Assembly: GCA_002478275.1 (NCBI GenBank)
Contig: DLMY01000009.1
Coordinates: 18,991 to 82,990 of the forward strand
DNA from: Actinobacteria bacterium UBA7524
GTDB taxonomy: Bacteria > Actinomycetota > Coriobacteriia > Anaerosomatales > UBA912
Length of the DNA stretch: 64,000 nt
Reading direction: 5' to 3'
Positions 15,815 through 58,946 of this stretch are shown in pieces (the stretch's first letter is position 1; each line of letters opens with the position of its first letter). The translations under genes were made by a program, and so were the position numbers. Under the pieces are notes generated by a model, which made no database searches, was not told the origin of the DNA, and saw nothing but the letters and a program-made list of their open reading frames with translations.

Positions 15815-16513
15815 CTAACGGTCAGTGGCTATGCGCGCGACGCCGGTCAGGTCTGCATGGACTATGAGGCGATATTGCGCGCTGTATGGCGGGTCGCATG
15901 CCGAAAGAGTCAGCCGGGGATCCTCGGTCGAATCCATGACATCGACCCTGTCGGGAGTCACGCGTACCTTCTCGGTCACGATGTAGCGATAGCGCCGGTA
16001 CGGCGAGTACAGGTCGATGGTATCACCTTGTTCGAGCTCGTCGATCCGCCGAAAGGGCCCACCGTACGTGGTCCGGTGACCAGCGATGCCGCAGTTGCCG
16101 ACGGGACCGGGTAGATCGGTGTATGCGATCCAGCCCGGGCCGCGTTTCAGCTCAGGTCGCCCGTGACCCTTGACCACGAACACGTCCACCCCGATGCTTG
16201 CCGCCACCAGGCGGCCGAATACCTCCCCATCTGCAAGCCCCGTCCAATACGCGGCGTCCTGCTCCTCCCAGCCTTCAAGATCGAACGGCTCGTCCCCGAC
16301 AAGGACGGGATCGCCGGATCCCGCCGGGCCGGGAAGGCCCTGCGCGAGACGGGTCTGGTCGAGACGGGCAGCGATGTCGGTCACGCCATAGTAGACAGCC
16401 AGGCCTACGGACAGTCCTAGCAGCAGATTCCCTACAGCGTGAGCCGTCAACCTCATGAAGCTTCGGCGCACCGGCAAGACCTCTCCAGCGACCGCTTCTC
16501 CCGCCAACGTCAT
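15815..16513 (-). CDS. Sortase (class D/E-like)
   Basis: N-terminal TM, AGHRTTYGGPF, LTLSAC..PYSAQYRL (His/Cys/Arg triad); start uncertain. Confidence 0.88.
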   Translation of the reverse strand: MTLAGEAVAGEVLPVRRSFMRLTAHAVGNLLLGLSVGLAVYYGVTDIAARLDQTRLAQGLPGPAGSGDPVLVGDEPFDLEGWEEQDAAYWTGLADGEVFGRLVAASIGVDVFVVKGHGRPELKRGPGWIAYTDLPGPVGNCGIAGHRTTYGGPFRRIDELEQGDTIDLYSPYRRYRYIVTEKVRVTPDRVDVMDSTEDPRLTLSACDPPYSAQYRLIVHADLTGVARIATDR

Positions 16514-16594
16514 GGCTCGTCTCCGGTGTTCCTCGGCATCACTGAATCCTATTCTGCCGCACTTTCCCGATTGTGACCCACGTTGCAGAAAAAC

Positions 16595-16610
16595 TGTGAC
16601 GAATCCCACA
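16595..16610. promoter_or_regulatory. CRP/FNR-family-like site
   Basis: TGTGA-N6-CCACA (9/10 to TGTGA-N6-TCACA); weaker copy at 16572-16587. Confidence 0.45.
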
Positions 16611-16618
16611 AATGGGCC

Positions 16619-16645
16619 TAATGATTCCGAACGGGATGCCGATAA
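16619..16645 (+). promoter_or_regulatory. Sigma-28 (FliA/SigD/WhiG)-type promoter
   Basis: TAAT-N15-GCCGATAA versus consensus TAAA-N15-GCCGATAA, about 40 nt before the riboswitch. Confidence 0.7.
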
Positions 16646-16685
16646 GAGAGATGTAGGGATTTGAGAACTGCACAGAGGGACCAGC

Positions 16686-16784
16686 TCCCCGAAAAAGGCA
16701 CAGCTCACCGAAAGGCGAGTGTCGCAAAGTCACGGGTCTACCGGAGGCCGTAAGAGACCTCCCACGACAGCCGGACTGCCGGGT
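16686..16784 (+). ncRNA. c-di-GMP-I (GEMM) riboswitch
   Basis: GGCACAGCTCACC-GAAA-GGCGAGTGTCGCAAAGTCACGGGTCTAC...GACAGCCGGACTGCCG: GNRA loop, CGCAAAG junction, receptor and GCCG..CTGCC 3' end. Confidence 0.88.
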
Positions 16785-17679: not shown

Positions 17680-19662
17680 TTATGCCTTGCGCACCGCCAA
17701 TCTCAACGTCGCACCAGCCAACGCCGCGAACAGCGCGGCCATGGCCAGCAGCATCGACTCACCGCCGGTGAAGGGCAGGAACTCTTCGTCCGCCTTCACT
17801 GGCTTGACCGTATCGGTCTCGTCCTCAGTGAATGGCACGAAGGGGTTGTCGACCTTCACGGTCGCGTCGTCTGTGTTGTTCGACAGGTTCTCGTCATCGG
17901 GGTGGCTGATGACCACCACGTTATCGATGTCGGTCTCGCCGATCGGCATCGTCGTCTTCACGCGGGCTGTGTAGCTGATGGTCTGGGGTCCGTCCTCGGC
18001 CGCAAGCGGTCCGGGCATCATCCAGGTGATCTTCCCATCCGCCACGATACCTCCCGCCGAATCGATGATGTCGAGATAGCGCTCATCGTAGTCATCGACG
18101 ATCAGGTAGTTCGAAGCCGCACCGTCACCGATATTGCGGAACGTGAGCGTATAGACCACGGTCTGTCCCGGGCTTGCGCTCGACACGCTCGCGACTTTCT
18201 CGATCGCGAGATCGGGAGCGGTGAAGGGCTCGAACGGATCTTCGCTGTTACCGAAGATCAGTCCCTCTATGGCCGAACCGTTGGAGACCTCGAACGGGTC
18301 CTCGGGTCCGACTGTCATGAACCAGCCGTCGCGGTCTTCCTCGGCGACCTTGTAGGAGCCGGGAACGAGTCCGCTGAAGCTGAATGCTCCACCGTCACCT
18401 GTGGTGGTGACTGCGTAGAGGATCTCTTCGATTCCGCCTTCACCCTCAACCAGGCGGTACAGGTAGATGGTCCAGCCGGCCATGCCGTCCTCGCCATCGT
18501 CCCAGATACCATCAGCGTCGGCGTCATCGAACTTGAAGCCGGAGGCGCTTGCTTCATAGTCGAACTCGTTGAGTTCGTCTTGGAGCAATGTCTCGGGCTC
18601 ACCGGTACCGAGCAAGATGTGCTCCTCGCCCAGTACTATCCACCAGGACACGGTGATCGTGCTTCCGTGCGGCAGATCGACCTCACCGACGTAGGGTCCA
18701 TCGCCGGTCAGCGGGACCTCGATGGTTCCCGATCCCTCAAGCGAGAAGCTTGCATAGAACTCAGCTCCCAGCGGCGGGGCGTCGAACGTGAGGCTGAAGG
18801 ACTTGGTGACGTCCTCTTCGGGCTCATCGCATTCCTGGATCGTGTGTGTGAACAACAGGCCGGGCCATTCACCCTGACCTGCCCAGGCGGTCTCGCCCTG
18901 CTGGCCGTTGGAGACTTCAGCGTGCGCTGCGATGTAGACCGTATCGCCAGGAGCCGCACCGATATCTGCCAACGGGATGGTGTACGTGAAGGATGTGACT
19001 GCCGGATCATGTGTTGTCTGGTAGGGGAACGACCCGGGTGCATAGGACGCCGGGGGAACAAGGCCCACGTAGAGGTGGGTCAGCCCCATCGTCCATCCAC
19101 CTGTGGTCGCGAACGTCACGTACAGGTTGTCCGCATCCTGGGTTGCGGAAACAGTACCCACATCGATGTGCTGGCCCGCCCAGAACGTCGCGATCGTCGT
19201 GAGCTCACAGCCCTCGCCGACCACTATCGGAGCGGGGAAATCATCGCGCGGCCCATTGGCCGCCTCGACCTTACCATCGTCTTCGACCTTGAGCGGAAGA
19301 GCGACGACCGGGACCGTCACGGGTGCTACCTCGACGGACTCGGACGCGTCCTTCTCAACCTCGGATTCGACGTGAACCTCAGCGGAATCATCTACTGCCT
19401 CTTCCGGTACTCTCTCCTTGTCGGGGACCGGGGCCTCTATGACGACCTCGTCCTCCACCGGTACCGGAACTGGCTCCTCTTCAACGACCGGATCGGGCTC
19501 CGGTGTCTCCGGGGCCAGAACAGTCTCTTCCAGAGGTGCCGCTGGTGTCTCGTCGGCGAAGACGGCAACGCCTGGGCTCGCAAGTGCGGTGACCAACATG
19601 AGTGCCATCGCTACCGACATCACGCGTCCTGCACGGTGCTTACGTACGCTTGCCCACAACAT
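17680..19662 (-). CDS. Sortase-anchored surface protein (SdrD-B/Cna-like and DUF11-like domains, LPFTG)
   Basis: Signal peptide, acidic Pro-rich linker, GFKFDDADADGIWDDGE, DLAIEK..PGQTVVYTLT, C-terminal LPFTG + TM + RK. Confidence 0.85.
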   Translation of the reverse strand: MLWASVRKHRAGRVMSVAMALMLVTALASPGVAVFADETPAAPLEETVLAPETPEPDPVVEEEPVPVPVEDEVVIEAPVPDKERVPEEAVDDSAEVHVESEVEKDASESVEVAPVTVPVVALPLKVEDDGKVEAANGPRDDFPAPIVVGEGCELTTIATFWAGQHIDVGTVSATQDADNLYVTFATTGGWTMGLTHLYVGLVPPASYAPGSFPYQTTHDPAVTSFTYTIPLADIGAAPGDTVYIAAHAEVSNGQQGETAWAGQGEWPGLLFTHTIQECDEPEEDVTKSFSLTFDAPPLGAEFYASFSLEGSGTIEVPLTGDGPYVGEVDLPHGSTITVSWWIVLGEEHILLGTGEPETLLQDELNEFDYEASASGFKFDDADADGIWDDGEDGMAGWTIYLYRLVEGEGGIEEILYAVTTTGDGGAFSFSGLVPGSYKVAEEDRDGWFMTVGPEDPFEVSNGSAIEGLIFGNSEDPFEPFTAPDLAIEKVASVSSASPGQTVVYTLTFRNIGDGAASNYLIVDDYDERYLDIIDSAGGIVADGKITWMMPGPLAAEDGPQTISYTARVKTTMPIGETDIDNVVVISHPDDENLSNNTDDATVKVDNPFVPFTEDETDTVKPVKADEEFLPFTGGESMLLAMAALFAALAGATLRLAVRKA

Positions 19663-19897: not shown

Positions 19898-19934
19898 AAA
19901 AGACCGGCCCGCTAGTACAAATGCGGGCCGGTCT
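19898..19934 (-). terminator. Intrinsic terminator (minus strand) between lon and the surface-protein gene
   Basis: 12-bp perfect stem AGACCGGCCCGC/GCGGGCCGGTCT with a short U tract. Confidence 0.75.
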
Positions 19935-20015
19935 CACCATTGACTCAGCACTGGCTTACTGGTGACCGAAACACTGACTCCAGTGCGTCCATGTCTCCCG
20001 TCTTACACCGAGGAC

Positions 20016-43278: not shown

Positions 43279-44520
43279 TCAGTCGCCTCTGATCGTGGGG
43301 AATCGCCCTGTGATCGTGGTGCGATCGACCTGTCGCTCGCCGGTGAACAGCGGCTTGAGGGCGATGTCCTCCGAGATCCTATCCATCAGCATCGGCCACC
43401 TGCGCTGGAAGTCGAAGTAGTTCTGGCAGTTCTCCAAGGCGTAGGTGGACGCATCTCTCAGAGCCACGCGCGCGATGCGGAGGTACTGACCGCCCTCCTT
43501 GCGTGAGATTCCACGCAACATGGATGTCAGCATGGCTCTCCACACCACCGACGATCCGATGAATTGGCCGGGGAACGGCATCATCGACTCCGGCGTGACC
43601 TGTCTGAGGTCGACCTGCGACTTCGCGAACTCGATCTTTCGATGTTCGTAGACGAACCGGTACACGTCTTGCCGGAAATGCAGCGCTGCATTGGAGAGTC
43701 TGGGGGGATTGTGTATCACGTGCCACTCACCATCGAGGAAGACGTCCCCACCGTGCATCCTCGCGTTGATGACGTAATCGACGTCCTCTCCGCGCATCAC
43801 CCACGGATCGAAGCTGACATTGAAGAACATGTCCCGATGCAGCGCCAGGCAGCCGCCGAACGCTATCGTGCTCGTCTGGATACGTGGTGGCGCATCGACT
43901 CCCGCCAGGGCCTGGTTGAAGGCGTCGTTCTTGCGCCAGAAGACGTCCGCCCAGTGAGGAGTACTGTGCCGCTGATGGCGTCCTTGTTCGTCAACGTAGT
44001 ATCCGGACTTGGCGAGGATCATCCGGCCGTCATCGAGACGCTGGCCCAGCCCCTCCATCGCCTTTCGCAGGAAGGCGGTGTCGGTGATGATCTGGTCATC
44101 GTCGAGGAACACCGCGCTGTCGCAACCGAGTACCGCTGCGGCCATCAGTCCGACGTTGCGTACTGCTCCGTAACCGACCAGGCTCACTCCACGGATGACG
44201 TCGGCGAACTCGAGCTGCTCCAACCTGCGATGCAACGAGCCGAGCTCCGCCGGCCCGAACACGAATGCATCGATGCCCGGAAAGTCGGCAAGTATCCTTC
44301 GGACCCTGTCTTCCGCCTGATGCTCGATGCTCGGATCCGTCGCTGCGACGATCAAGACGACCTTCCCGAGACCCTCCACATCTTCGAGCGACCTCAGACA
44401 GTCAGGTAACGTGCCGTCGCTGTCGACGGGGGTGGGGTGGTCGTACACGGTCAGGGGATCCTCGGTGACGCGCCCCCTACGACGCGTCCAGAAAGTCGGT
44501 ATGATCACGCAAGGCGTCAC
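43279..44520 (-). CDS. GT-A fold glycosyltransferase-like protein
   Basis: IIPT, GYGAVRN, FLDDD, RGEDVDY; GTG start after GGAAGGTG. Confidence 0.7.
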   Translation of the reverse strand: MTPCVIIPTFWTRRRGRVTEDPLTVYDHPTPVDSDGTLPDCLRSLEDVEGLGKVVLIVAATDPSIEHQAEDRVRRILADFPGIDAFVFGPAELGSLHRRLEQLEFADVIRGVSLVGYGAVRNVGLMAAAVLGCDSAVFLDDDQIITDTAFLRKAMEGLGQRLDDGRMILAKSGYYVDEQGRHQRHSTPHWADVFWRKNDAFNQALAGVDAPPRIQTSTIAFGGCLALHRDMFFNVSFDPWVMRGEDVDYVINARMHGGDVFLDGEWHVIHNPPRLSNAALHFRQDVYRFVYEHRKIEFAKSQVDLRQVTPESMMPFPGQFIGSSVVWRAMLTSMLRGISRKEGGQYLRIARVALRDASTYALENCQNYFDFQRRWPMLMDRISEDIALKPLFTGERQVDRTTITGRFPTIRGD

Positions 44521-44603
44521 GAGCGCACCTTCCAGTTGTCTAATGCGCGGATGTCGAGCCAAGAACAGGGCCGTTAGAATGATACCGCTCTACGCCCTGC
44601 CCG

Positions 44604-45296
44604 TCAGTCATCGGCAAGATGCTCGGCGATGTTGTCCGGAGTCACGAGGCATCTGTCCACCGAGTCTTTGAGGACCGCATACGGTCGCGAGCCGGTCAAC
44701 AACTCGTTACAGATGAGGGCAGCGGGTGTGCCGTCGATACCGAGATGCAGTCCAAGATGACGAAAACGGTGAAGCCGGTCGGCGTAGGCATCTTGCTCCC
44801 AGACCTCCTCGGCTTCATCCCTCGAGAGACCCTCCCTGGCAGCTACCTCGAGCAACACATCCCGCGAGCCGATGTCCTCACCGCGCCCGAAGTAGGCCCC
44901 GAAGATCGCGTGATGGACAGAGCTGTGTACTTCGGGACCTTTGTCCCTGCCGAGTTCGGAAAGGGACATCGCGAGGTGGGTCTTCGGCAAAAAGGGGGGG
45001 ATGACCAGGGGGAAGCCTTCTCGAGCGGCAAGCGTGTGCAGGTGTTCCTCCACCCGTTCGGAGGCTCCGATGGCCTGGAGTTCACTGATCTGATAACCCT
45101 CTTCGGGCATGTCCGGCCTGAGTTCGAAAGGTACGAGGAACACCTCGACGTCCCTTTCCCGCGCAAGCATGTCGAACCGGAACTGGTCGACGTAGCAGAA
45201 CGGTCAAGCGTAGTCGAAGAACACAAGTACCCTTGGGACCACCACCGATGGCTCCGGAACCGCTTTCTCGTCTGGCAGCTCGTCGGTGTGAGTCAT
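44604..45296 (-). CDS. DsbA/FrnE-like thioredoxin-fold selenoprotein (Sec at codon 31)
   Basis: RBS GGAGGT, ATG 45296; ...LVFFDYA-TGA(45204-45206)-PFC in frame with ORF 44604-45170 (PFELRP, GIDGTP); SECIS-like hairpin follows. Confidence 0.8.
45171..45191 (-). promoter_or_regulatory. Candidate bacterial SECIS element
   Basis: GUCGACC-AGUUCC-GGU-UCGAC hairpin; apical loop 19 nt after UGA with G then U. Confidence 0.6.
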
Positions 45297-45328: not shown

Positions 45329-46342
45329 TCATTCGACCATGCTCAGTGAGCCTCCGCACCGGGCACAGGTCCCATCGCGTGTGTGCCTTCCGATTATCGT
45401 ATACCCGGAACGCCTCACCGCGACCGCTCCGCAGGAAGGACAGGTCGTGTCTTCACCTCCGGGCTCGTCCACATTGCCGAGGTAGACGTAGTCCAGGCCC
45501 GCCTGCTCCCCGATCGCCTTGGCCCGGCGCAGGGTCTCTATGGGGGTGGGCTCGAGGTCCGCGAACTCGAGATAGGGGAAGAAGCGCGTGATGTGCCAGG
45601 GAGTCCCGACGCCGAGGTCCTCGGCTATCCAGGCGGCCATCGAGCGGAGTTCCTCGACGGAGTCATTGACTGTCGGCACGATGTTGGTGACGACCTCTAC
45701 GTGCATCCCGTGGCGGTGTTTCGCTCTCTCGGCGGCACGCCGCACGTGCTCGGCCCCCGAGACATGACACAGTGTCCGGTACGTCTCTTCGGAAGCTCCC
45801 TTCAAATCCACTCGCCAGACATCTATCAGGTTCCCGAGTAGGTCCAGCCCCGCCTCGGTGATGTAGCCGTTCGTGACCATGACAGTGAACAGGCCACGCC
45901 GACGGCACTCCGCTGCGACATCGATGACGTATTCCAGCCAGATGACAGGTTCGTTGTAGGTGAACGCCACGCCAGGGCACCGATAGCGTTGGGCCATCTC
46001 GACGACCATGACAGGTGTCAACGTGTGCAGCTGGTCCGCATCCTCCTCGGGAGTGGCTCTGCTGATGCGCCAGTTCTGGCAGTGCCCACACTTCATGCTG
46101 CAGCCGACGCTCCCGATGGATAGGACAGCTGCACCCGGGTTGAAATGGAAGACCGGCTTCTTCTCGATGGGATCGGCCGCGATCGAAGCGATGCGACCAT
46201 AGGTCATGGCCGCCAGCGTGCCGTCCACGTTGCGCCGCACGCCGCAGATACCTGATGCACCCTCGCCTATCAAGCATGCATTCGGGCACAGGCCACATCG
46301 GATGCGATCACCCTCTGGTGCCCAGAGCTGTGCCGTGTGCAT
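45329..46342 (-). CDS. amrS: AmmeMemoRadiSam-system radical SAM enzyme
   Basis: CGLCPNAC, DPIEKKP, CSMKCGHCQN, FTYNEP, YVYLGNV. Confidence 0.88.
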   Translation of the reverse strand: MHTAQLWAPEGDRIRCGLCPNACLIGEGASGICGVRRNVDGTLAAMTYGRIASIAADPIEKKPVFHFNPGAAVLSIGSVGCSMKCGHCQNWRISRATPEEDADQLHTLTPVMVVEMAQRYRCPGVAFTYNEPVIWLEYVIDVAAECRRRGLFTVMVTNGYITEAGLDLLGNLIDVWRVDLKGASEETYRTLCHVSGAEHVRRAAERAKHRHGMHVEVVTNIVPTVNDSVEELRSMAAWIAEDLGVGTPWHITRFFPYLEFADLEPTPIETLRRAKAIGEQAGLDYVYLGNVDEPGGEDTTCPSCGAVAVRRSGYTIIGRHTRDGTCARCGGSLSMVE

Positions 46343-46351
46343 ACTGCCCCC

Positions 46352-48175
46352 TTATCCGGCCGACAACCTCACCTGGTCCCGGCCGGACTCCTTGGCCACA
46401 TATAGCGCCCGATCGGCGGCCTCGAGCAAGTCGAGTGGGGTGCCGTCAGGCACTCTGAGCGCTGCCACTCCTATCGAGATCGTCACGCTGATGGAAGGGG
46501 GATCCCCGTTCACGGGAACAGGCCTTCGCGCAATGGACTCCCTGAGCTTCTCGGCGACCGCGAAAGCGGCGGTCTTGTTCGTGGCAGGAAGAACAAGGGC
46601 GAATTCGTCACCACCGTACCTCACCGCGATATCAACATCGCGGACATCGGAGCACAAGGAGGTGGCGACCGATTTAAGCACGTGGTCTCCAGCGAGATGC
46701 CCGTACGTGTCGTTGACACGCTTGAAGCCATCGATGTCGATCATGAGCAGGGAGAGCGGTGTTTCGTAGCGCAACGCCCGTGCGACTTCCTCGACGATCC
46801 TGTCGTCAAATGCTCTTCGATTCCAGAGGCCCGTCAGTGCATCGAGAGTCGCTGTCCGTTCCAGTTCCTCGGCCACATTGGCGCAGCGACGGCGCTGCAA
46901 CGGGAAGCACATGTCCCAGCTCGAGTTCTTGTGGTAGATGGCCACAGCGTGTGCCTCACAGGTCTGGTATCCGCATGCCCCGCAGTCCAGCGTCTCATCA
47001 CGCGTCTCGAACTCACCTTCGGCGAGGATGAGGTCGATCTCCTCGGCAGGTGGTGTTACCTGATCGACTGGGGACGCACGGAACGACCTGAGTAGCGACA
47101 CCGTCGGCATATGGTCGAGTATCTCTCTGGTGGTCGCGTGCGACAGCGGCGCGGAGTCCCTCTCGGCGGCCATGATGTTGCGCTTGGCGAATACCGACAT
47201 CCCGGAGTTCACGGCGGGTCCGTCGATGCAGCCCTCGCAGTTGAGCATGTCGATGACCGCCGGCGCGGTCTCCCCGTCCATTATCGCTTTGAGCAGGTCA
47301 TCGAGCTGGCGAAGGCCGCGAACCTTCACCACCGTCTCGTCGATGGCCGTACGCTCGGCAAGCGTCTTGCGCGGAAAGCCGTCCGTGAGGGAGATCTCCT
47401 TGACCGGTTGCGGGCGCCTGGATCCCGCACGCGTACGACGACCGGTCTTCGGTGGCGCTCCCTGGAGCAAGCGCCCCAGTTCGGTGAAGTCTATGACGGC
47501 ATCGACAGCGCCCTCGAACTGAGGGTCGAAGGCCTCGTCCTTCCTCGCGTAGCAGGGCGAGACGTAGACCACCGCAGTACCTTCGGGATACATCGCCTTC
47601 ACGAGCCTGGCCTGGGCCACATAAGGCGGAACGACCGGCACGAGTGCACTTACGAGCCGAGGATAGAAGAGCCGGACCCAGTCGACCGCGACGGGACACG
47701 TGGAGCGGAGCGACAGCGGCGCACAGGGACGTGTGTGATCTCGCTCGTAGGCGAGCGCGACGAGCTCTTCGCCGAGCAGCGTGCTCTCCACCGCGAAGAA
47801 GCCAGCGTCTTCGAGCACGCGCTCGACTTCTTCGGGGGACCGGGGATGAAGGGCCGCCACGAACTCCGTCGCGAGCACCGCGACGACGGGGCGTCCACTG
47901 ACGAGCAGCTCTCGTACGCTGGCGGTATCGTCACGCACGCCATGCCCGCAATTACCGCACTCCGAGACGCAGAGGCCGCACTTCACGCAGCGTTCCTCGA
48001 TGATCTCGGTCCGGTGGTCCACTACTCGGATCGCACGCGCGGGGCAGTACCTCACGCAACCCCAACACTCGCGGCACGCGTCCTCATGGTTGGTGATCAG
48101 GAATCGGTCGGGTGCAGCAGAAGCCCCTCGCACCGCGCCGTCTGCCGGGCGGGTCATCTGTGAGCGATCACTCAT
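46352..48175 (-). CDS. Fe-S sensor diguanylate cyclase: ferredoxin + [FeFe]-hydrogenase-like + FeS + GGDEF
   Basis: CRECWGC..CP, CVKCGLC; STCP, SPCYARKDE, MLNCEGCIDGP; CGACGYQTC; DIDGFK, RDVD..RYGGDEF. Confidence 0.85.
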   Translation of the reverse strand: MSDRSQMTRPADGAVRGASAAPDRFLITNHEDACRECWGCVRYCPARAIRVVDHRTEIIEERCVKCGLCVSECGNCGHGVRDDTASVRELLVSGRPVVAVLATEFVAALHPRSPEEVERVLEDAGFFAVESTLLGEELVALAYERDHTRPCAPLSLRSTCPVAVDWVRLFYPRLVSALVPVVPPYVAQARLVKAMYPEGTAVVYVSPCYARKDEAFDPQFEGAVDAVIDFTELGRLLQGAPPKTGRRTRAGSRRPQPVKEISLTDGFPRKTLAERTAIDETVVKVRGLRQLDDLLKAIMDGETAPAVIDMLNCEGCIDGPAVNSGMSVFAKRNIMAAERDSAPLSHATTREILDHMPTVSLLRSFRASPVDQVTPPAEEIDLILAEGEFETRDETLDCGACGYQTCEAHAVAIYHKNSSWDMCFPLQRRRCANVAEELERTATLDALTGLWNRRAFDDRIVEEVARALRYETPLSLLMIDIDGFKRVNDTYGHLAGDHVLKSVATSLCSDVRDVDIAVRYGGDEFALVLPATNKTAAFAVAEKLRESIARRPVPVNGDPPSISVTISIGVAALRVPDGTPLDLLEAADRALYVAKESGRDQVRLSAG

Positions 48176-48761
48176 CTCCACCCCCAACCGCTCGGCCCTC
48201 GACCCCCGCACCGAGCGTTCGTCCCAGTCCACTCCTCCGCACCGCGATCGACAACGGTAGGCCCATACCATACACCACGACCGCCTGCCCGATACAGACG
48301 GTGACAAACCCGAACGCGTACATGGCCGGCCAGCTGCCTTCAAGATCGAGCCCGAGCACAGGGATCTTATAGAGCCCCAGTCCGGCCAAGATGAAGGGCA
48401 GGTATGCCGGGACGATAACCGCATTGCTCAGCACCGGACCCGCGAGAGCGAGCACCGGACGCTCGCGCATCCGCCACGTCCAGGCGACACCGATCAGTGT
48501 AGCCACCGAACCGAACACCATGTCGAGTAGACCGATCGGCCCGACCTGGGTCAGCATGAATCCGTTCGCCACCGCGGTGCCGATCGTCAGCCCAGGGAGG
48601 GCCGCCGGGGTGACGAGCGCGAGCACCGTGAGGCTCTCGCTGACACGGAGTTGTATCGGCCCCCAGCCCAGGTATCCCAAAAACTGCACCGCGACAAGCG
48701 TGAATACCGCATAGAGCGCGGCGATCACTCCCGCTTGCGCGATGTAGGTCGAGCGTCGCAC
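48168..48761 (-). CDS. queT: QueT-family membrane transporter
   Basis: IAALYAV, GPIQLRVSESL, GLTIGTAVAN, DMVFGS. Confidence 0.8.
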   Translation of the reverse strand: MRRSTYIAQAGVIAALYAVFTLVAVQFLGYLGWGPIQLRVSESLTVLALVTPAALPGLTIGTAVANGFMLTQVGPIGLLDMVFGSVATLIGVAWTWRMRERPVLALAGPVLSNAVIVPAYLPFILAGLGLYKIPVLGLDLEGSWPAMYAFGFVTVCIGQAVVVYGMGLPLSIAVRRSGLGRTLGAGVEGRAVGGGDE

Positions 48762-48852
48762 GTGTCTTGTCCCCCTCGGTCAGGCTGGTTCAGGGATTCT
48801 AGCAGGGCGACAGCCTCTGCGTCATCATCACGACAGCCACCCGGATCGGAGG

Positions 48853-50979
48853 TCACGCGGGCAGCTGCGGTTCGTCGCCCCGGGGCGTCATGAGCCCTGT
48901 TGCACCTGCCAGTGCCCTGCGGTCCATCGCTTCCAGGAAACTGTCCACGACGCCGGGGTCGAACTGAGTGCCCGCTCCCGACCGCAGTTCCGCCTTGGCC
49001 TGCGTGAAGGACAACCGCTTCTGATAGGGACTCTCCGACGTCATCGCGTCGAAAGCGTCGGCCACCGCCAGGATGCGCGCAAGCAGCGGGATGTCCTCTC
49101 CTGCAAGTTGCATCGGATAGCCGGTCCCGTCCCAGTTCTCGTGATGGTGCATGATCACGGGGGCGATGGCGTTGAGGAAGTCTATCTGCTCGACGATGTT
49201 CGCTCCGATCTGAGCGTGGAGTTTCACGCGCTCTCTTTCTTCGGGGGTCAATTTCGACGGCTTGAGCAGGATCTCCTCGGCGACGCCGGTCTTGCCGATG
49301 TCGTGGAGCAGGCCCGCGAACCTCAGGAGTTCGACTTCTTCGAACGGCAGGCCCATCTGCTCGCCGGTCGCCATCGCGTAGTCCATCACGCGGTCCGCGT
49401 GACCCGGTGAGGCGTGTTCTGTCGCGTCGAGGGTCGCCGAGAGCGCCGCGATGGTCTTCATCAGGTCATCTCTCGTGCGGACGAACACGGCCGCGCGCTC
49501 AAGCGCAAGCGCGGTGTGCTGGCCCAGGCCCTCGAGCAACCGGCGGTCGTCGCTGTCGAACAGGCCTTCACCGCACCCGGCGATGAACGCATATCCGACC
49601 ACGTTGCCCTGTACCATCAATTCGGACGCCATGACATTCCACTCAGGACACGCATCGGTCTGCGCAAGGTCGCCACGGTGCGTCACGAAGCGTACGGACT
49701 CGAAGGGGTCCGTGGCAACATCACGGCCGGCGGCCTCGGCGAGTATCGCTTCCACGTCCGACTGGGACACGTCGGCACAGAGCACCACGGTCGCATGGTC
49801 CCTGCCCCAACCCGTAAGCACGAGGCCGCCCACATCGATGTCGAAGGCCTTCTCCAACAGACTCGACGCCAGCTGGAGTACTTCTTCGATGTCCGCGGAG
49901 ATCCCAAGCGTGTTCGCGATCCCTCCGAGCTGGATCAGCTCGTACATCCTCCGCTCGGTCGCCTCATGCTTTCGGGCATTGGATATGACGGCTGCGGCGA
50001 ATTGCGCGTACTGCTCGATGAGAAGCAGATCGGCTCCGGACAGCCTGCGCCCAGGGTCTGAGATATTGAGATTGATCACGCCGAGAGTCTCTCCGCCGTG
50101 AACCAGGGGTACGCTCAACGAGGTCGCGATGTCTCGACCCGGCGCCAGTGAATGCTCGAGCATCGGATCGGCCGAGCCACTCACGAGCACGCCTCTGCCG
50201 GTCAAGGCCACCCGTCCGGCGATGCCCTCGCCGAGACGTACCATACGTCCCCGCGCCTTGCTGACAGCCGGCCCTCGAGGTGCGACCACCTCAAGCAGGT
50301 CGGTGCCCGGTCTGGACAACATGAGCGAACCACTGTCGGCGCAGACGATGGACATGCCGCGCTCAAGCACCGCTTCCAGAAGATCCGGACCCATGCCGCG
50401 CCGCTCTATGAAAGCCCGGCTTGCGCCGACGAACACTTCGAGTTCACGAGTTCGAGTCTGCCATGTCCGGTCATCGCATTCACGCCTGAGTGTCTCCTCG
50501 GCGCTGATGCGGGCAAGGTCCACGAGCGCCTCGATCTCGCGTCGCGGCAGGACTGGGATGCTTCGCACGATGCGCCTGGCTTCAGACTCGACCACTCCTT
50601 TGGCCAGGAGACGCTCGAAGAGCCGCTTGCGTTCCCTGGTCGAGGAGACGAATCCTCCGACGACGAGCGTTGCCACTTGATGGTCCTGATGAGTGATGGG
50701 GGCCACGTAGCAGCTCAGCCCGGCGCGACAGCCGATCTGGATCGAACCCGCCGCAAGATCGGGGAGCGGGTCGTCGAAGCAGGCTGCTGGAGCGGTCGCG
50801 GATTCGGAGACTGCGAGCTGACAGTAGCTGCAGTGCCCCGCAGTTTCGATCACGGAGCACGTCCCGAGTCCCATGACAGAGACAGCAAGACCCGTGGCAT
50901 CGAACAACGCATCCATGCCTTCACGCCAGGCCTTGCCTTTGAAAGCCGCTGCCAGGGTCTGCTGGTCGAGGTCCACCAT
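48853..50979 (-). CDS. PocR-GAF-GAF-HD-GYP phosphodiesterase
   Basis: PocR-like N-terminus (CSYC, CRAGL), GAF domains, HDIGK, HHENWDGTGYP. Confidence 0.88.
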   Translation of the reverse strand: MVDLDQQTLAAAFKGKAWREGMDALFDATGLAVSVMGLGTCSVIETAGHCSYCQLAVSESATAPAACFDDPLPDLAAGSIQIGCRAGLSCYVAPITHQDHQVATLVVGGFVSSTRERKRLFERLLAKGVVESEARRIVRSIPVLPRREIEALVDLARISAEETLRRECDDRTWQTRTRELEVFVGASRAFIERRGMGPDLLEAVLERGMSIVCADSGSLMLSRPGTDLLEVVAPRGPAVSKARGRMVRLGEGIAGRVALTGRGVLVSGSADPMLEHSLAPGRDIATSLSVPLVHGGETLGVINLNISDPGRRLSGADLLLIEQYAQFAAAVISNARKHEATERRMYELIQLGGIANTLGISADIEEVLQLASSLLEKAFDIDVGGLVLTGWGRDHATVVLCADVSQSDVEAILAEAAGRDVATDPFESVRFVTHRGDLAQTDACPEWNVMASELMVQGNVVGYAFIAGCGEGLFDSDDRRLLEGLGQHTALALERAAVFVRTRDDLMKTIAALSATLDATEHASPGHADRVMDYAMATGEQMGLPFEEVELLRFAGLLHDIGKTGVAEEILLKPSKLTPEERERVKLHAQIGANIVEQIDFLNAIAPVIMHHHENWDGTGYPMQLAGEDIPLLARILAVADAFDAMTSESPYQKRLSFTQAKAELRSGAGTQFDPGVVDSFLEAMDRRALAGATGLMTPRGDEPQLPA

Positions 50980-56369: not shown

Positions 56370-58946
56370 CTACCTGCGACAGAAGCCCAGTGCTTCGGCC
56401 ATGCCCTGCATACGGGTGGAGAGCCCGGCAAGAGCATCGGCGTAGAAGTGGTCGACGAGCGACGCACCCGATGCCTCGCTCATGGCCCGATCGACATGAT
56501 GCAGAATGGCCCGCATCTCGTCATCGGTACACTCGCCTGGTCCATTGGCGACCAGCGACACCTTCCCCTGGGCGACTCGAACCGGCAGGCCATCGGCCAC
56601 GAATCTCTGATTCAGCTCCTCTTCCACGTTGGATGCGAGGCGCGGACCGGAAAGTCTGCGGAAGCTCGTGATCATCCCCTCGATCAGCGCAACGAAGATC
56701 GCTTGAGCCTCCTCCTCGCACGGAGACTCCTGATCGATCGCACCCGGTATCCCCGTGGAGTCCGTCTCCGCGAGCGCCTCGACGAACGCTTCCACGACTC
56801 GAGGATCGAAATGCGATCCCGCACAGGCATGAAGCTCGTTGACAGCCCCCTCGATGGTCCGGCCTGCGCGGTAAGGCCTGTCCGACACCATGGCCTCGAA
56901 GGCATCTGCGGCGGTGAGTATCCGGGCAAGCAACGGGATCTCCTCGCCCCGCAACCCTGCTGGATAACCTCGTCCGTCCCATCGCTCATGATGATGACGT
57001 ACGACCGGTGTGATGAGCCAAGGAAACCCGACGGGCTTGAGTATGTTTGCGCCGATCAGAGGATGGTGGCGCATCTGGCCCATCTCCTCGTCGGACAGCT
57101 TGCCGGGTTTGAGCAGGATCTCCTCCTTGATCCCGATCTTGCCGATGTCGTGAAGGTAGGCCGCCATCTCCAAAGCCGTGCGCTGGTCCTGCGATAGGCC
57201 CATCTTCTCTGCGATCATCACGGCGTAGATGGCCACCCGCTCCGAATGACCTCTCGTGTACGGGTCCTTCGCGTCGACAGCAGCCGCCAGGGAGCGAACG
57301 GTGGCCAGGTAGGCCTCCTGAAGGCTTGAGAACAGATCTATGTTACCTATGGCGATAGTCACATGGTTCGCGATCGTCGAGAGCAGGCGAACGTCATCAC
57401 CAGTGAAGCGGACCTTGTGGTTCGTCGAGCCCACGGTGACGGCTCCAAGCACCCCTTCGGCTGAGACGAGGGGTACACACAGCGCAGCCGGAGCCCCGGT
57501 CAGGGCGTCGACCTGATCGGCAACCTGGCTACTCGATGGGTTGAAGATCAGGGGGCGACCCTCTCGGATCACCCATTCCGCCATCGAAGATCGCAGACCC
57601 TCGCTGTCGGGGCGCGGAGCGTCGCCGGCCCTCCAGGCACGCAACTCGAGCCGGCCCGTGTCCTTGTCCTGCACGGTCACATAACCGAGGTCGACGCCGA
57701 AGATCCGCAAGACCGAGTCGAGGACTGACTCGAGGAGCACGTCCATCTCCAGCGTCGAGCCCAGAGCACGACTCATCTCGTAGAGCGTCGCCAACTCCAA
57801 GACCTTCTTGGTCAATGTCTCGCTGCGCTCGCTCAGGGACTCGGTCATCCCATTGAAGGTCTTGGTGAGTTCAGCGATCTCGCTGGCGCCCTTCACAGGT
57901 ATCCGGATACTGAAGTCCCCATCAGCGATCCTCTGTGCTCCGGTACTCAGCTCTTCCAATGGTGCCGAGACCCTGAAGGCCACCCAGAACCCAAGGCCCG
58001 CCAGGATGAGCACTCCAACGAGAGAACCCGCTGTGACTATCTCCATCGCCGTCAGTCGCGCCCTGTCGCTCGCGACCTGTGAGACGAGCGTGACCAGATA
58101 GCCCTCGCTGCGCCCAGCGTCCCCGCCCAGTGTCAGCCTGTCCGCTGCCACGCGATAGTTGATATTGCCCGAAGTCAGAGTAGCCCAGCCCGGACCATCC
58201 GAGATCCCACTCAAGGCGGCTACCACCTCCGGTGACCTACGCTCGAGCGCCCTGCCAAGCGGGACGGAGGACTCCGACCGTCCCCCACCGTCATGCTCAC
58301 GAGTATCCTCGACTTCAGCCTTCGCGATGAGGACACGATCGGCATCGTATACGGCGAACGCATCCCCGCTCGCTCCAGTGGCCAGAGATTCGAGCATCTC
58401 GTTGTCGATCACTCGCGCCAGGCGCAGAAGGTAGACGACTCCATCGACCTCCAGGGCCCTCGTCACCGATAGGGCGAGGCGTCCATCCACCGTGGGCAGA
58501 ACGGAGCGCCACGCTGTGGGCTTGGTCCCGATCACCTGTGCCCCGCCGGCCCTGTAGTCATCGATCGCCTCGATGGGAAGGCCCTCCGACACGAAGACAG
58601 TCCCGTCGTCGCGCAGGATCTCGATCCGGTCCAGCCCGGTCGCGACCGTCGCCTGGGACAGAACACCGGAAGCCAGACTCTTGTCCAGAGTCCTCAATGA
58701 GTCCGTCACGCGAGGATCATCTACGATGAGATCGGTCGTACGCATCATGTCCTGTGCGCTGGCCGCGAAGCGTGACTGGGTGTACTCCAGGGCAGTCTGC
58801 GCGTGCTGGTCCACCCAGCCGCGGGTCAACGCGGAGATGAAGTAGACGGCGACCAGGTTCGCCGAAAACCCCACCACGACGATGGCGATGAGCATGGGCC
58901 ACACGATCTGACCATACAGACGCCTGCCGAACACATGGCGGAGCAT
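56370..58946 (-). CDS. Membrane sensor-HAMP-GAF-HD-GYP phosphodiesterase
   Basis: TM-extracellular-TM, HAMP, GAF, DPYTRGHS, HDIGK, HHERWDGRGYP. Confidence 0.9.
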   Translation of the reverse strand: MLRHVFGRRLYGQIVWPMLIAIVVVGFSANLVAVYFISALTRGWVDQHAQTALEYTQSRFAASAQDMMRTTDLIVDDPRVTDSLRTLDKSLASGVLSQATVATGLDRIEILRDDGTVFVSEGLPIEAIDDYRAGGAQVIGTKPTAWRSVLPTVDGRLALSVTRALEVDGVVYLLRLARVIDNEMLESLATGASGDAFAVYDADRVLIAKAEVEDTREHDGGGRSESSVPLGRALERRSPEVVAALSGISDGPGWATLTSGNINYRVAADRLTLGGDAGRSEGYLVTLVSQVASDRARLTAMEIVTAGSLVGVLILAGLGFWVAFRVSAPLEELSTGAQRIADGDFSIRIPVKGASEIAELTKTFNGMTESLSERSETLTKKVLELATLYEMSRALGSTLEMDVLLESVLDSVLRIFGVDLGYVTVQDKDTGRLELRAWRAGDAPRPDSEGLRSSMAEWVIREGRPLIFNPSSSQVADQVDALTGAPAALCVPLVSAEGVLGAVTVGSTNHKVRFTGDDVRLLSTIANHVTIAIGNIDLFSSLQEAYLATVRSLAAAVDAKDPYTRGHSERVAIYAVMIAEKMGLSQDQRTALEMAAYLHDIGKIGIKEEILLKPGKLSDEEMGQMRHHPLIGANILKPVGFPWLITPVVRHHHERWDGRGYPAGLRGEEIPLLARILTAADAFEAMVSDRPYRAGRTIEGAVNELHACAGSHFDPRVVEAFVEALAETDSTGIPGAIDQESPCEEEAQAIFVALIEGMITSFRRLSGPRLASNVEEELNQRFVADGLPVRVAQGKVSLVANGPGECTDDEMRAILHHVDRAMSEASGASLVDHFYADALAGLSTRMQGMAEALGFCRR

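Follow-up and report, generated by a model that had tools for sequence, protein, structure and literature searches.

A hydrogenase-like, putative Fe-S sensor module fused to a diguanylate cyclase in the order Anaerosomatales

The stretch of DNA analyzed here (the window) comprises 64,000 nucleotides of contig DLMY01000009.1 from Actinobacteria bacterium UBA7524, a member of the order Anaerosomatales within the Coriobacteriia. Its reverse strand carries a genuine open reading frame at 46352–48175, encoding a 607-aa protein (P0001) that joins a hydrogenase-like Fe-S sensor to a diguanylate cyclase, as judged from the reading frame, Pfam, an AlphaFold model, and structure matching. The public gene call (P0002) begins at a later start and yields a protein of 544 aa. 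The 607-aa start is the better choice because it retains both ferredoxin motifs, most close homologs measure ~570–620 aa, and its ATG closely precedes the stop codon of the upstream QueT gene.

From the N terminus, and all on the reverse strand, the protein contains a 2x[4Fe-4S] ferredoxin domain (47948–48094; Fer4_10, residues 28–73), whose eight cysteines (C34, 37, 40, 44, 63, 66, 69, and 73) are all present in 40/40 sequences from the order; an H-domain (47216–47890; Fe_hyd_lg_C, PF02906, residues 96–320, E 2.8e-27, above cut-off) with four cubane cysteines (160, 208, 313, and 316) and, in alignments, a remodeled 2Fe pocket; and a C-terminal [4Fe-4S] domain (46901–46990; FeS, PF04060, residues 396–425; C398, 401, 406, and 423), the Cx2Cx4Cx16C motif of which is typical of group C/D sensory hydrogenases (PMC8163306). 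A signaling helix of fixed length (46844–46906), delimited by alignment and model, leads from the last Fe-S cysteine to Asp445 and into the GGDEF domain (46373–46852; residues 442–601, E 1e-47). The initial annotation, made from the letters alone, had described a ferredoxin-like N terminus, three H-cluster-like motifs, a further Fe-S domain, and a GGDEF domain with an I-site. Indeed, each of these could be located, as RSTCP (157–161), SPCYARKDE (206–214), DMLNCEGCIDGP (309–320), CGACG..TC (398–406), GHLAGD (492–497), the RDVD I-site (512–515), and GGDEF (521–525), and Pfam matches all four regions.

The AlphaFold model of the 607-aa protein (pLDDT 89.8, pTM 0.80) agrees with this layout: residues 14–367 match solved [FeFe]-hydrogenases (Z 34.4, rmsd 3.6, 344 residues aligned; 9f46), and residues 437–607 match the GGDEF domain of PleD (Z 28.5, rmsd 1.7, 170 residues aligned). 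Matches in the ESM Atlas were Fe_hyd_lg_C clusters only. All 16 cluster cysteines are invariant in 40/40 order sequences drawn from 22 families, and the four cubane cysteines C160, C208, C313, and C316 are present in each of the best 120 of 559 homologs.

The gene sits in a run of four on the reverse strand. A QueT-family transporter gene (48168–48761) precedes it in 39/39 order loci as its upstream operon partner. Downstream lie a radical SAM gene of the AmmeMemoRadiSam type (45329–46342; TIGR04337 above cut-off), present in 37/39 order loci and in 6/25 outside the order, and a DsbA/FrnE-like gene (44604–45296), present in 28/39. The latter carries an in-frame TGA (45204–45206) within a UxxC motif; among 28 orthologs, the position is TGA in 10, Cys in 16, and uncovered in 2, and the TGA probably encodes selenocysteine. 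A search of the source genome (83% complete) found neither SelA nor tRNA-Sec; SelA was found in 19/22 tested genomes and not in 3 of 10 that carry the TGA. Ahead of the operon is an extended -10 promoter-like site (48796–48825, reverse strand), at chance level on its own; TGnTAnnnT precedes QueT in 22/39 order loci, a count made with no shuffle control. A 427-aa ORF (43279–44562, reverse strand), which matches nothing in Pfam and only faintly suggests a glycosyltransferase, stands beside the operon in 37/39 order loci. Outside the order, the neighbors are mostly different, so the operon genes are not required partners. Upstream flanks there (L133–L157) mostly hold a YbaK-like gene with a LOG/TIGR00725-like gene, or an anti-sigma antagonist, these names having been assigned by inspection. 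Many M2e/M2f sensory genes adjoin a catalytic [FeFe]-hydrogenase (PMC8163306); no such catalytic gene was found near the locus in either the order or the outside-order neighborhoods. The source genome does contain [NiFe] enzymes, group 1-like and 3b-like, matching the description of Anaerosomatales in PMC9686372. The gene for a group 1-like [NiFe] large subunit (L043, G000:C45:800-2269) has an in-frame TGA at its C-terminal motif, and its product is probably a [NiFeSe] enzyme.

The fusion is widespread within the order. PF02906 matches occur in 132/146 Anaerosomatales genomes, including 90/98 of high quality, and are nearly always single per genome: an extra, canonical copy was seen only in G124, and the source genome (G000) contains one H-domain protein and no second. 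Genes were inspected in 71 order genomes besides the source (32 taken by score or by sampling, and 39 selected by hand across 22 families), and all 71/71 have the fusion. A search with the sensor part matched 559 proteins among 8000 scored; in the best 120 of these, every protein combines PF02906 with GGDEF, and those named by taxon belong to Coriobacteriia or to Actinomycetota metagenome-assembled genomes. In a 401-genome sample of the phylum, PF02906 matches appeared in 29 genomes outside Coriobacteriia. Of 27 outside-class genomes whose genes were inspected, 26 carry the clade signature (25 of them including GGDEF and one truncated by a contig end), and the 27th, G175, encodes canonical-pocket proteins with kinase-like tails. 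Two apparent members lacking GGDEF (P0139 and P0150) proved to be frameshifted gene predictions and were rejected as such, and a related-locus search seeded with P0134 returned almost exclusively unrelated GGDEF domains. A literature search, with subscription papers and supplements beyond its reach, found no description of an [FeFe] H-domain–GGDEF fusion.

What distinguishes these proteins is the pocket that would hold the 2Fe subsite. CpI numbers were counted from alignments and transferred via the canonical sequence L010; the comparison involved 40 family-spread order sequences, 25 clade members from outside the order, the best 120 homologs, and 118 relatives without GGDEF, drawn from the best 150 representatives once rows shorter than 380 aa had been removed. 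Glu104 (47864–47866, reverse strand, as are the following codons) occupies the CpI S232 position, the proximal cyanide contact; it is Glu in 120/120, 40/40, and 25/25 sequences, the residue being Ser, Ala, or Thr in 117/118 other relatives. Glu136 (47768–47770; CpI A272) is Glu in 40/40 and Glu or Asp in 25/25, against Ala in 107/118 others. Arg157 (47705–47707; CpI T297) is Arg in 40/40 and 25/25, and in just 2/118 others, both frameshifted clade members. Arg211 (47543–47545), at the position of the distal cyanide anchor CpI K358, is Arg in 120/120 and 40/40 order sequences, with Lys in 103/118 others. In addition, CpI S323-P-Q325 is PPY, G418 is Ser262, and G421 is Asp265. The residues holding the 2Fe cyanides (APS/APA, SPQ/SPM, and Lys358) are replaced by ATE, PPY, and Arg. 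Within the order, E104, E136, R157, R211, S262, D265, and Y185 are each found in 40/40 sequences. Outside it, D265, Y185, and R211 are not conserved, and the Lys position holds Ala in 13, Gln in 7, Lys in 3, Val in 1, and Trp in 1 of the 25 members. The changes constant across the clade are Glu104, Glu/Asp136, and Arg157 (E/E/R), and Lys-to-Arg is fixed only within the order.

We take residues A94 and K228 (Cr numbers) to be equivalent to CpI S232 and K358, equating them by motif. A94 contacts the proximal cyanide, and H-cluster assembly fails in K228 variants (PMC9516953); genuine sensory enzymes retain the residues that hydrogen-bond the 2Fe subsite (PMC10055695). Because Glu104 and Arg211 are substituted at the positions to which the PMC9516953 residues map, both cyanide anchors appear to have been lost. 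A canonical 2Fe subsite is thus, with considerable confidence, predicted to be absent, and it is the pocket, not the missing maturase genes, that carries the argument for its loss. The initial annotation had arrived at a possible lack of this subsite by another path, pointing to a CxxC last motif and to the Lys-to-Arg change in what it called a degenerate protein. The rebuilt pocket upholds the suspicion, with corrections. CxxC was rejected as a mark of cofactor loss, being common to 61/118 non-GGDEF relatives; 12 CxxC proteins scanned with Pfam retain Lys and have histidine kinase, MCP, or sigma54 outputs. The Arg, although present in all order sequences, gives way to A/Q/K/V/W elsewhere in the clade. 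Nor does "degenerate" describe the protein, which, to judge from conservation across the order with all 16 cysteines kept and the pocket rebuilt, is remodeled and conserved rather than a decaying gene.

The proton path is likewise altered. The group A cysteine (C299) is absent, with Thr159 in its place, and Ser206 stands at the M353 position, as a hydroxyl does in group D. E252 of TamHydS is the proton-path Glu of group D (PMC10407848). On our mapping of the V423 position, this Glu (Val in group A) would correspond to Phe267 here, where 120/120 sequences have Phe or Tyr.

Profile searches, in which positive controls matched, found HydG, HydF, and HydE above cut-off in 0/146 genomes of the order each (related genomes that are not independent), including the whole source genome (82.9% complete); the initial annotation had noted no hydEFG in the window. 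HydG and HydF were likewise found in 0/29 matched genomes of other classes. Five order genomes gave sub-threshold HydG matches, and the one inspected (L040) is ThiH-like and adjoins thiG- and thiC-like genes, named by inspection. The adjacent radical SAM gene was rejected as a substitute maturase: it encodes an AmmeMemoRadiSam enzyme and lies within ~1 kb in only 6/25 outside-order loci. The absence of maturases is nevertheless weak, supporting evidence, because HydG and HydF are also absent from 6/8 Actinomycetota genomes with canonical H-domains (G124, G175, G300, G313, G482, and G515, that is, G124, G175, and four of the six genomes of family f28) and because of a published precedent, in which full maturase sets occur in 5/130 archaeal [FeFe] genomes, some eukaryotes lack them, and an alternative route is argued (PMC11216029). 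Two canonical [FeFe]-hydrogenase genes, L199 (G175:C19) and L010 (G124:C104), lie in genomes that are 100% and 94% complete, with no HydG or HydF found.

In trees, one branch sets the E/E/R proteins (30 rows) apart from the rest, with an SH-aLRT of 97 when the pocket columns are included, and of 94 after masking 16 pocket columns without a group A outgroup; both trees are quick ones that use 32 unnamed relatives drawn at random for comparison and have no firm root. The best reading of the sequences is that the sensor-cyclase arose within the group C/D sensory [FeFe]-hydrogenases, from their CxxC branch.

The output domain appears functional. The A-site, D480, N488, D497, R512–D515, and GGDEF (521–525) are all intact; D480, N488, and D497 correspond to metal- and guanine-binding residues of PleD. 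D497 is present in 39/40 family-spread order sequences. Hypr cGAMP synthases carry Ser at the position of this guanine-binding Asp (PMC6456294), and the Asp of GHLAGD was correctly read at the outset as the mark of a c-di-GMP-type enzyme. The protein is thus very probably an active c-di-GMP cyclase, and the original proposal of an Fe-S sensor fused to such a cyclase stands. The A-site is intact in 34/40 family-spread sequences. It is dead in all 27/27 genomes of family f2 that were examined (e.g., L011–L022), in f16, and in two f1 genomes; every ortholog with a dead A-site retains RxxD and the pocket, and these proteins are probably c-di-GMP receptors.

Between the last Fe-S cysteine and Asp445, the linker measures 23 residues in 40/40 order and 24/24 outside-order sequences. 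It is hydrophobic at positions 424, 431, and 438, in heptad spacing, in 40, 37, and 38 of 40 sequences, and residues 424–443 are helical in the AlphaFold model, which together suggest direct coiled-coil signaling by the established cyclase mechanism. Pairwise identity is 0.57 for the H-domain, 0.62 for the FeS domain, and 0.52 for GGDEF.

Other c-di-GMP components accompany the protein. The source genome contains 8 GGDEF, 9 HD_5, and 3 MshEN matches, two of the last with the RLG..L...G motif. Within the window, a c-di-GMP-I riboswitch (16687–16783, forward strand; 60.3 bits) precedes the gene for a 210-aa protein that is probably secreted and has no Pfam match; the G before the GC of its P1 marks it as c-di-GMP type, not cGAMP type. 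A c-di-GMP-II-GAG riboswitch (19917–20007, reverse strand) precedes the gene for an SdrD-B/DUF11 surface protein (17680–19662) that ends with an LPFTG sorting-like motif, and a sortase gene (15815–16708) is found further downstream. Two HD-GYP-type proteins are encoded near the cyclase, PocR-GAF-HD (48853–50979) and HAMP-GAF-HD (56370–58946), both on the reverse strand; the former adjoins the cyclase locus in 7/33 other order loci with short flanks.

Among described proteins, TamHydS (group D/M2e) shares the N-terminal 2x[4Fe-4S] domain, the H-domain, the C-terminal Cx2Cx4Cx16C cluster, the lack of PAS and of C299, Ser at M353, and Leu at M497 (PMC8163306). It differs in that it takes up 2Fe, turns over H2, uses the E252 path, has no fused output, and adjoins a group A hydrogenase (PMC8163306, PMC13104023, PMC10407848), whereas the present protein has replaced the cyanide-contact residues, has Phe at E252/V423 and a fused GGDEF domain, and is without an [FeFe] partner. 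The same sensor module occurs in TmHydS and in HydDB classes C1 (histidine kinase), C2 (chemotaxis), and C3 (phosphatase) (PMC10055695, PMC5037454), but these relatives keep APS/SPM/Lys, and TmHydS has a PAS domain. In group C, PAS follows the cluster; here, GGDEF follows after 23 residues. In the CxxC sister proteins, the module is likewise joined directly to a kinase, MCP, or sigma54 activator. Among the [FeFe] classes of HydDB, none is linked to a cyclase; [NiFe] group 2c, whose members are diguanylate cyclase-linked, offers a proposed hydrogenase–c-di-GMP link, although its fold is unrelated and its role only putative (PMC5037454). PleD/WspR-type cyclases share the GGDEF fold, A-site and I-site, and a helical linker with a DxLT motif at its end, but their input is a receiver domain instead of a multi-cluster Fe-S module. 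Eukaryotic Nar1/IOP1 (CIAO3) has the [FeFe]-hydrogenase fold with [4Fe-4S] clusters only; it serves cytosolic Fe-S assembly, belongs to a different branch, and has no signaling output.

Taken together, these features favor, at a probability of roughly 55%, a cytoplasmic Fe-S sensor-cyclase with four cubanes and no 2Fe subsite, in which the redox state of the H-site would control the cyclase via the linker. Glu104, Glu136, Asp265, Arg157, and Arg211 would form a charged network in the emptied pocket, next to the H-site cubane, a geometry read from the alignment. Electrons from a low-potential carrier could reach this cubane via the N-terminal clusters, and the resulting redox change may shift the H-domain and the C-terminal Fe-S domain, such that the heptad linker helices would re-register in a dimer and c-di-GMP synthesis would be switched, with feedback through the RxxD site. 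H2 does not reduce the C-terminal cluster of TamHydS, and the redox state of that cluster does not serve as the signal (PMC13104023), which counts against the present reading; we therefore infer that the switch lies in the H-domain. The signal would, on balance, be the redox state of the cell. Likely outputs are the MshEN pilus ATPases and the riboswitch-controlled surface proteins, so that attachment would follow energy status. Also against this reading, 3/25 outside-order members keep Lys.

The invariant charged residues of the pocket would fit a ligand site equally well. The emptied 2Fe pocket might have become a new binding site controlling the cyclase, with a single metal bound by Glu104, Glu136, Asp265, and the bridging Cys316, now free, or an anion, for instance a carboxylate or a sulfur species, bound by Arg157 and Arg211. 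Its residues are invariant in the order and kept even where the cyclase site is dead; however, D265, Y185, and R211 vary outside the order, the neighboring genes name no single ligand and differ outside the order, and the whole ferredoxin relay is retained, making this arrangement unlikely. A true H2 sensor, obtaining its 2Fe subsite or a variant thereof by a HydEFG-independent route, is an improbable alternative, despite a domain layout identical to that of TamHydS/TmHydS, the precedent of hydrogenases without maturases (PMC11216029 and the canonical H-domain genomes above), and the use of H2 by cultured Anaerosomatales (PMC9686372). Glu stands at the proximal cyanide position, Lys is missing from 22/25 outside-order and 40/40 order members, neither the group A Cys (Thr159) nor the group D Glu (Phe267; PMC10407848) of the proton path is present, and no catalytic [FeFe] gene lies nearby. 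Of the three signals originally offered (H2, O2, or redox), H2 is the least supported.

Nar1/IOP1 in eukaryotes, or FNR-type sensors, provide a precedent for sensing through cubane loss. An H-site cubane without its 2Fe cap could be labile, and its loss or repair might switch the cyclase in response to O2, oxidative stress, or Fe-S supply. The thiol/selenol oxidoreductase gene in the same run in 28/39 loci would suit such a role, as would the character of cultured members, which are strict anaerobes and catalase-positive (PMC9686372), but the DsbA-like gene is missing from 11/39 fetched stretches and cluster loss would not need an N-terminal electron relay, leaving the idea as improbable as H2 sensing. 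It is still harder to credit that the Fe-S part is merely a dimerizing scaffold for a constitutive or partner-controlled cyclase: a housekeeping-type extended -10 motif in 22/39 loci (no shuffle control) and the partly structural accessory clusters of TamHydS (PMC13104023) would agree with this, yet pairwise identity in the H-domain (0.57) and the FeS domain (0.62) does not fall below that in GGDEF (0.52), and linker length and pocket residues are fixed. More tentatively, the family may represent an old lineage internal to Actinomycetota that converted the H-cluster pocket into a lone [4Fe-4S] cluster plus a Glu/Glu/Arg site for some other metal or ligand, without a need for HydEFG. The result would serve as a one-component switch for c-di-GMP, comparable in bacteria to Nar1, and some families would later have turned it into a receptor for c-di-GMP while leaving the sensor unchanged; we rate this as possible but doubtful.

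For group C/D [FeFe]-hydrogenases, a sensory role is so far putative (PMC8924675), and their mode of signal transmission has yet to be established (PMC13104023). The present protein combines sensor and output in one soluble chain with an easily assayed product. Three GGDEF fusions with a canonical APS/SPM/Lys pocket (P0142, P0147, and P0222), which fall outside the E/E/R clade, are candidates for true H2-sensing cyclases; two natural forms, one with the rebuilt E/E/R pocket and one with the canonical pocket, thus allow paired comparison. If the redox-switch reading is true, the hydrogenase fold has been reused as a bacterial sensor free of 2Fe, and an annotation of "[FeFe] group C" in these Actinomycetota need not imply H2 sensing. 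It would also link energy status to attachment in subsurface reducers of Fe(III) and sulfur.
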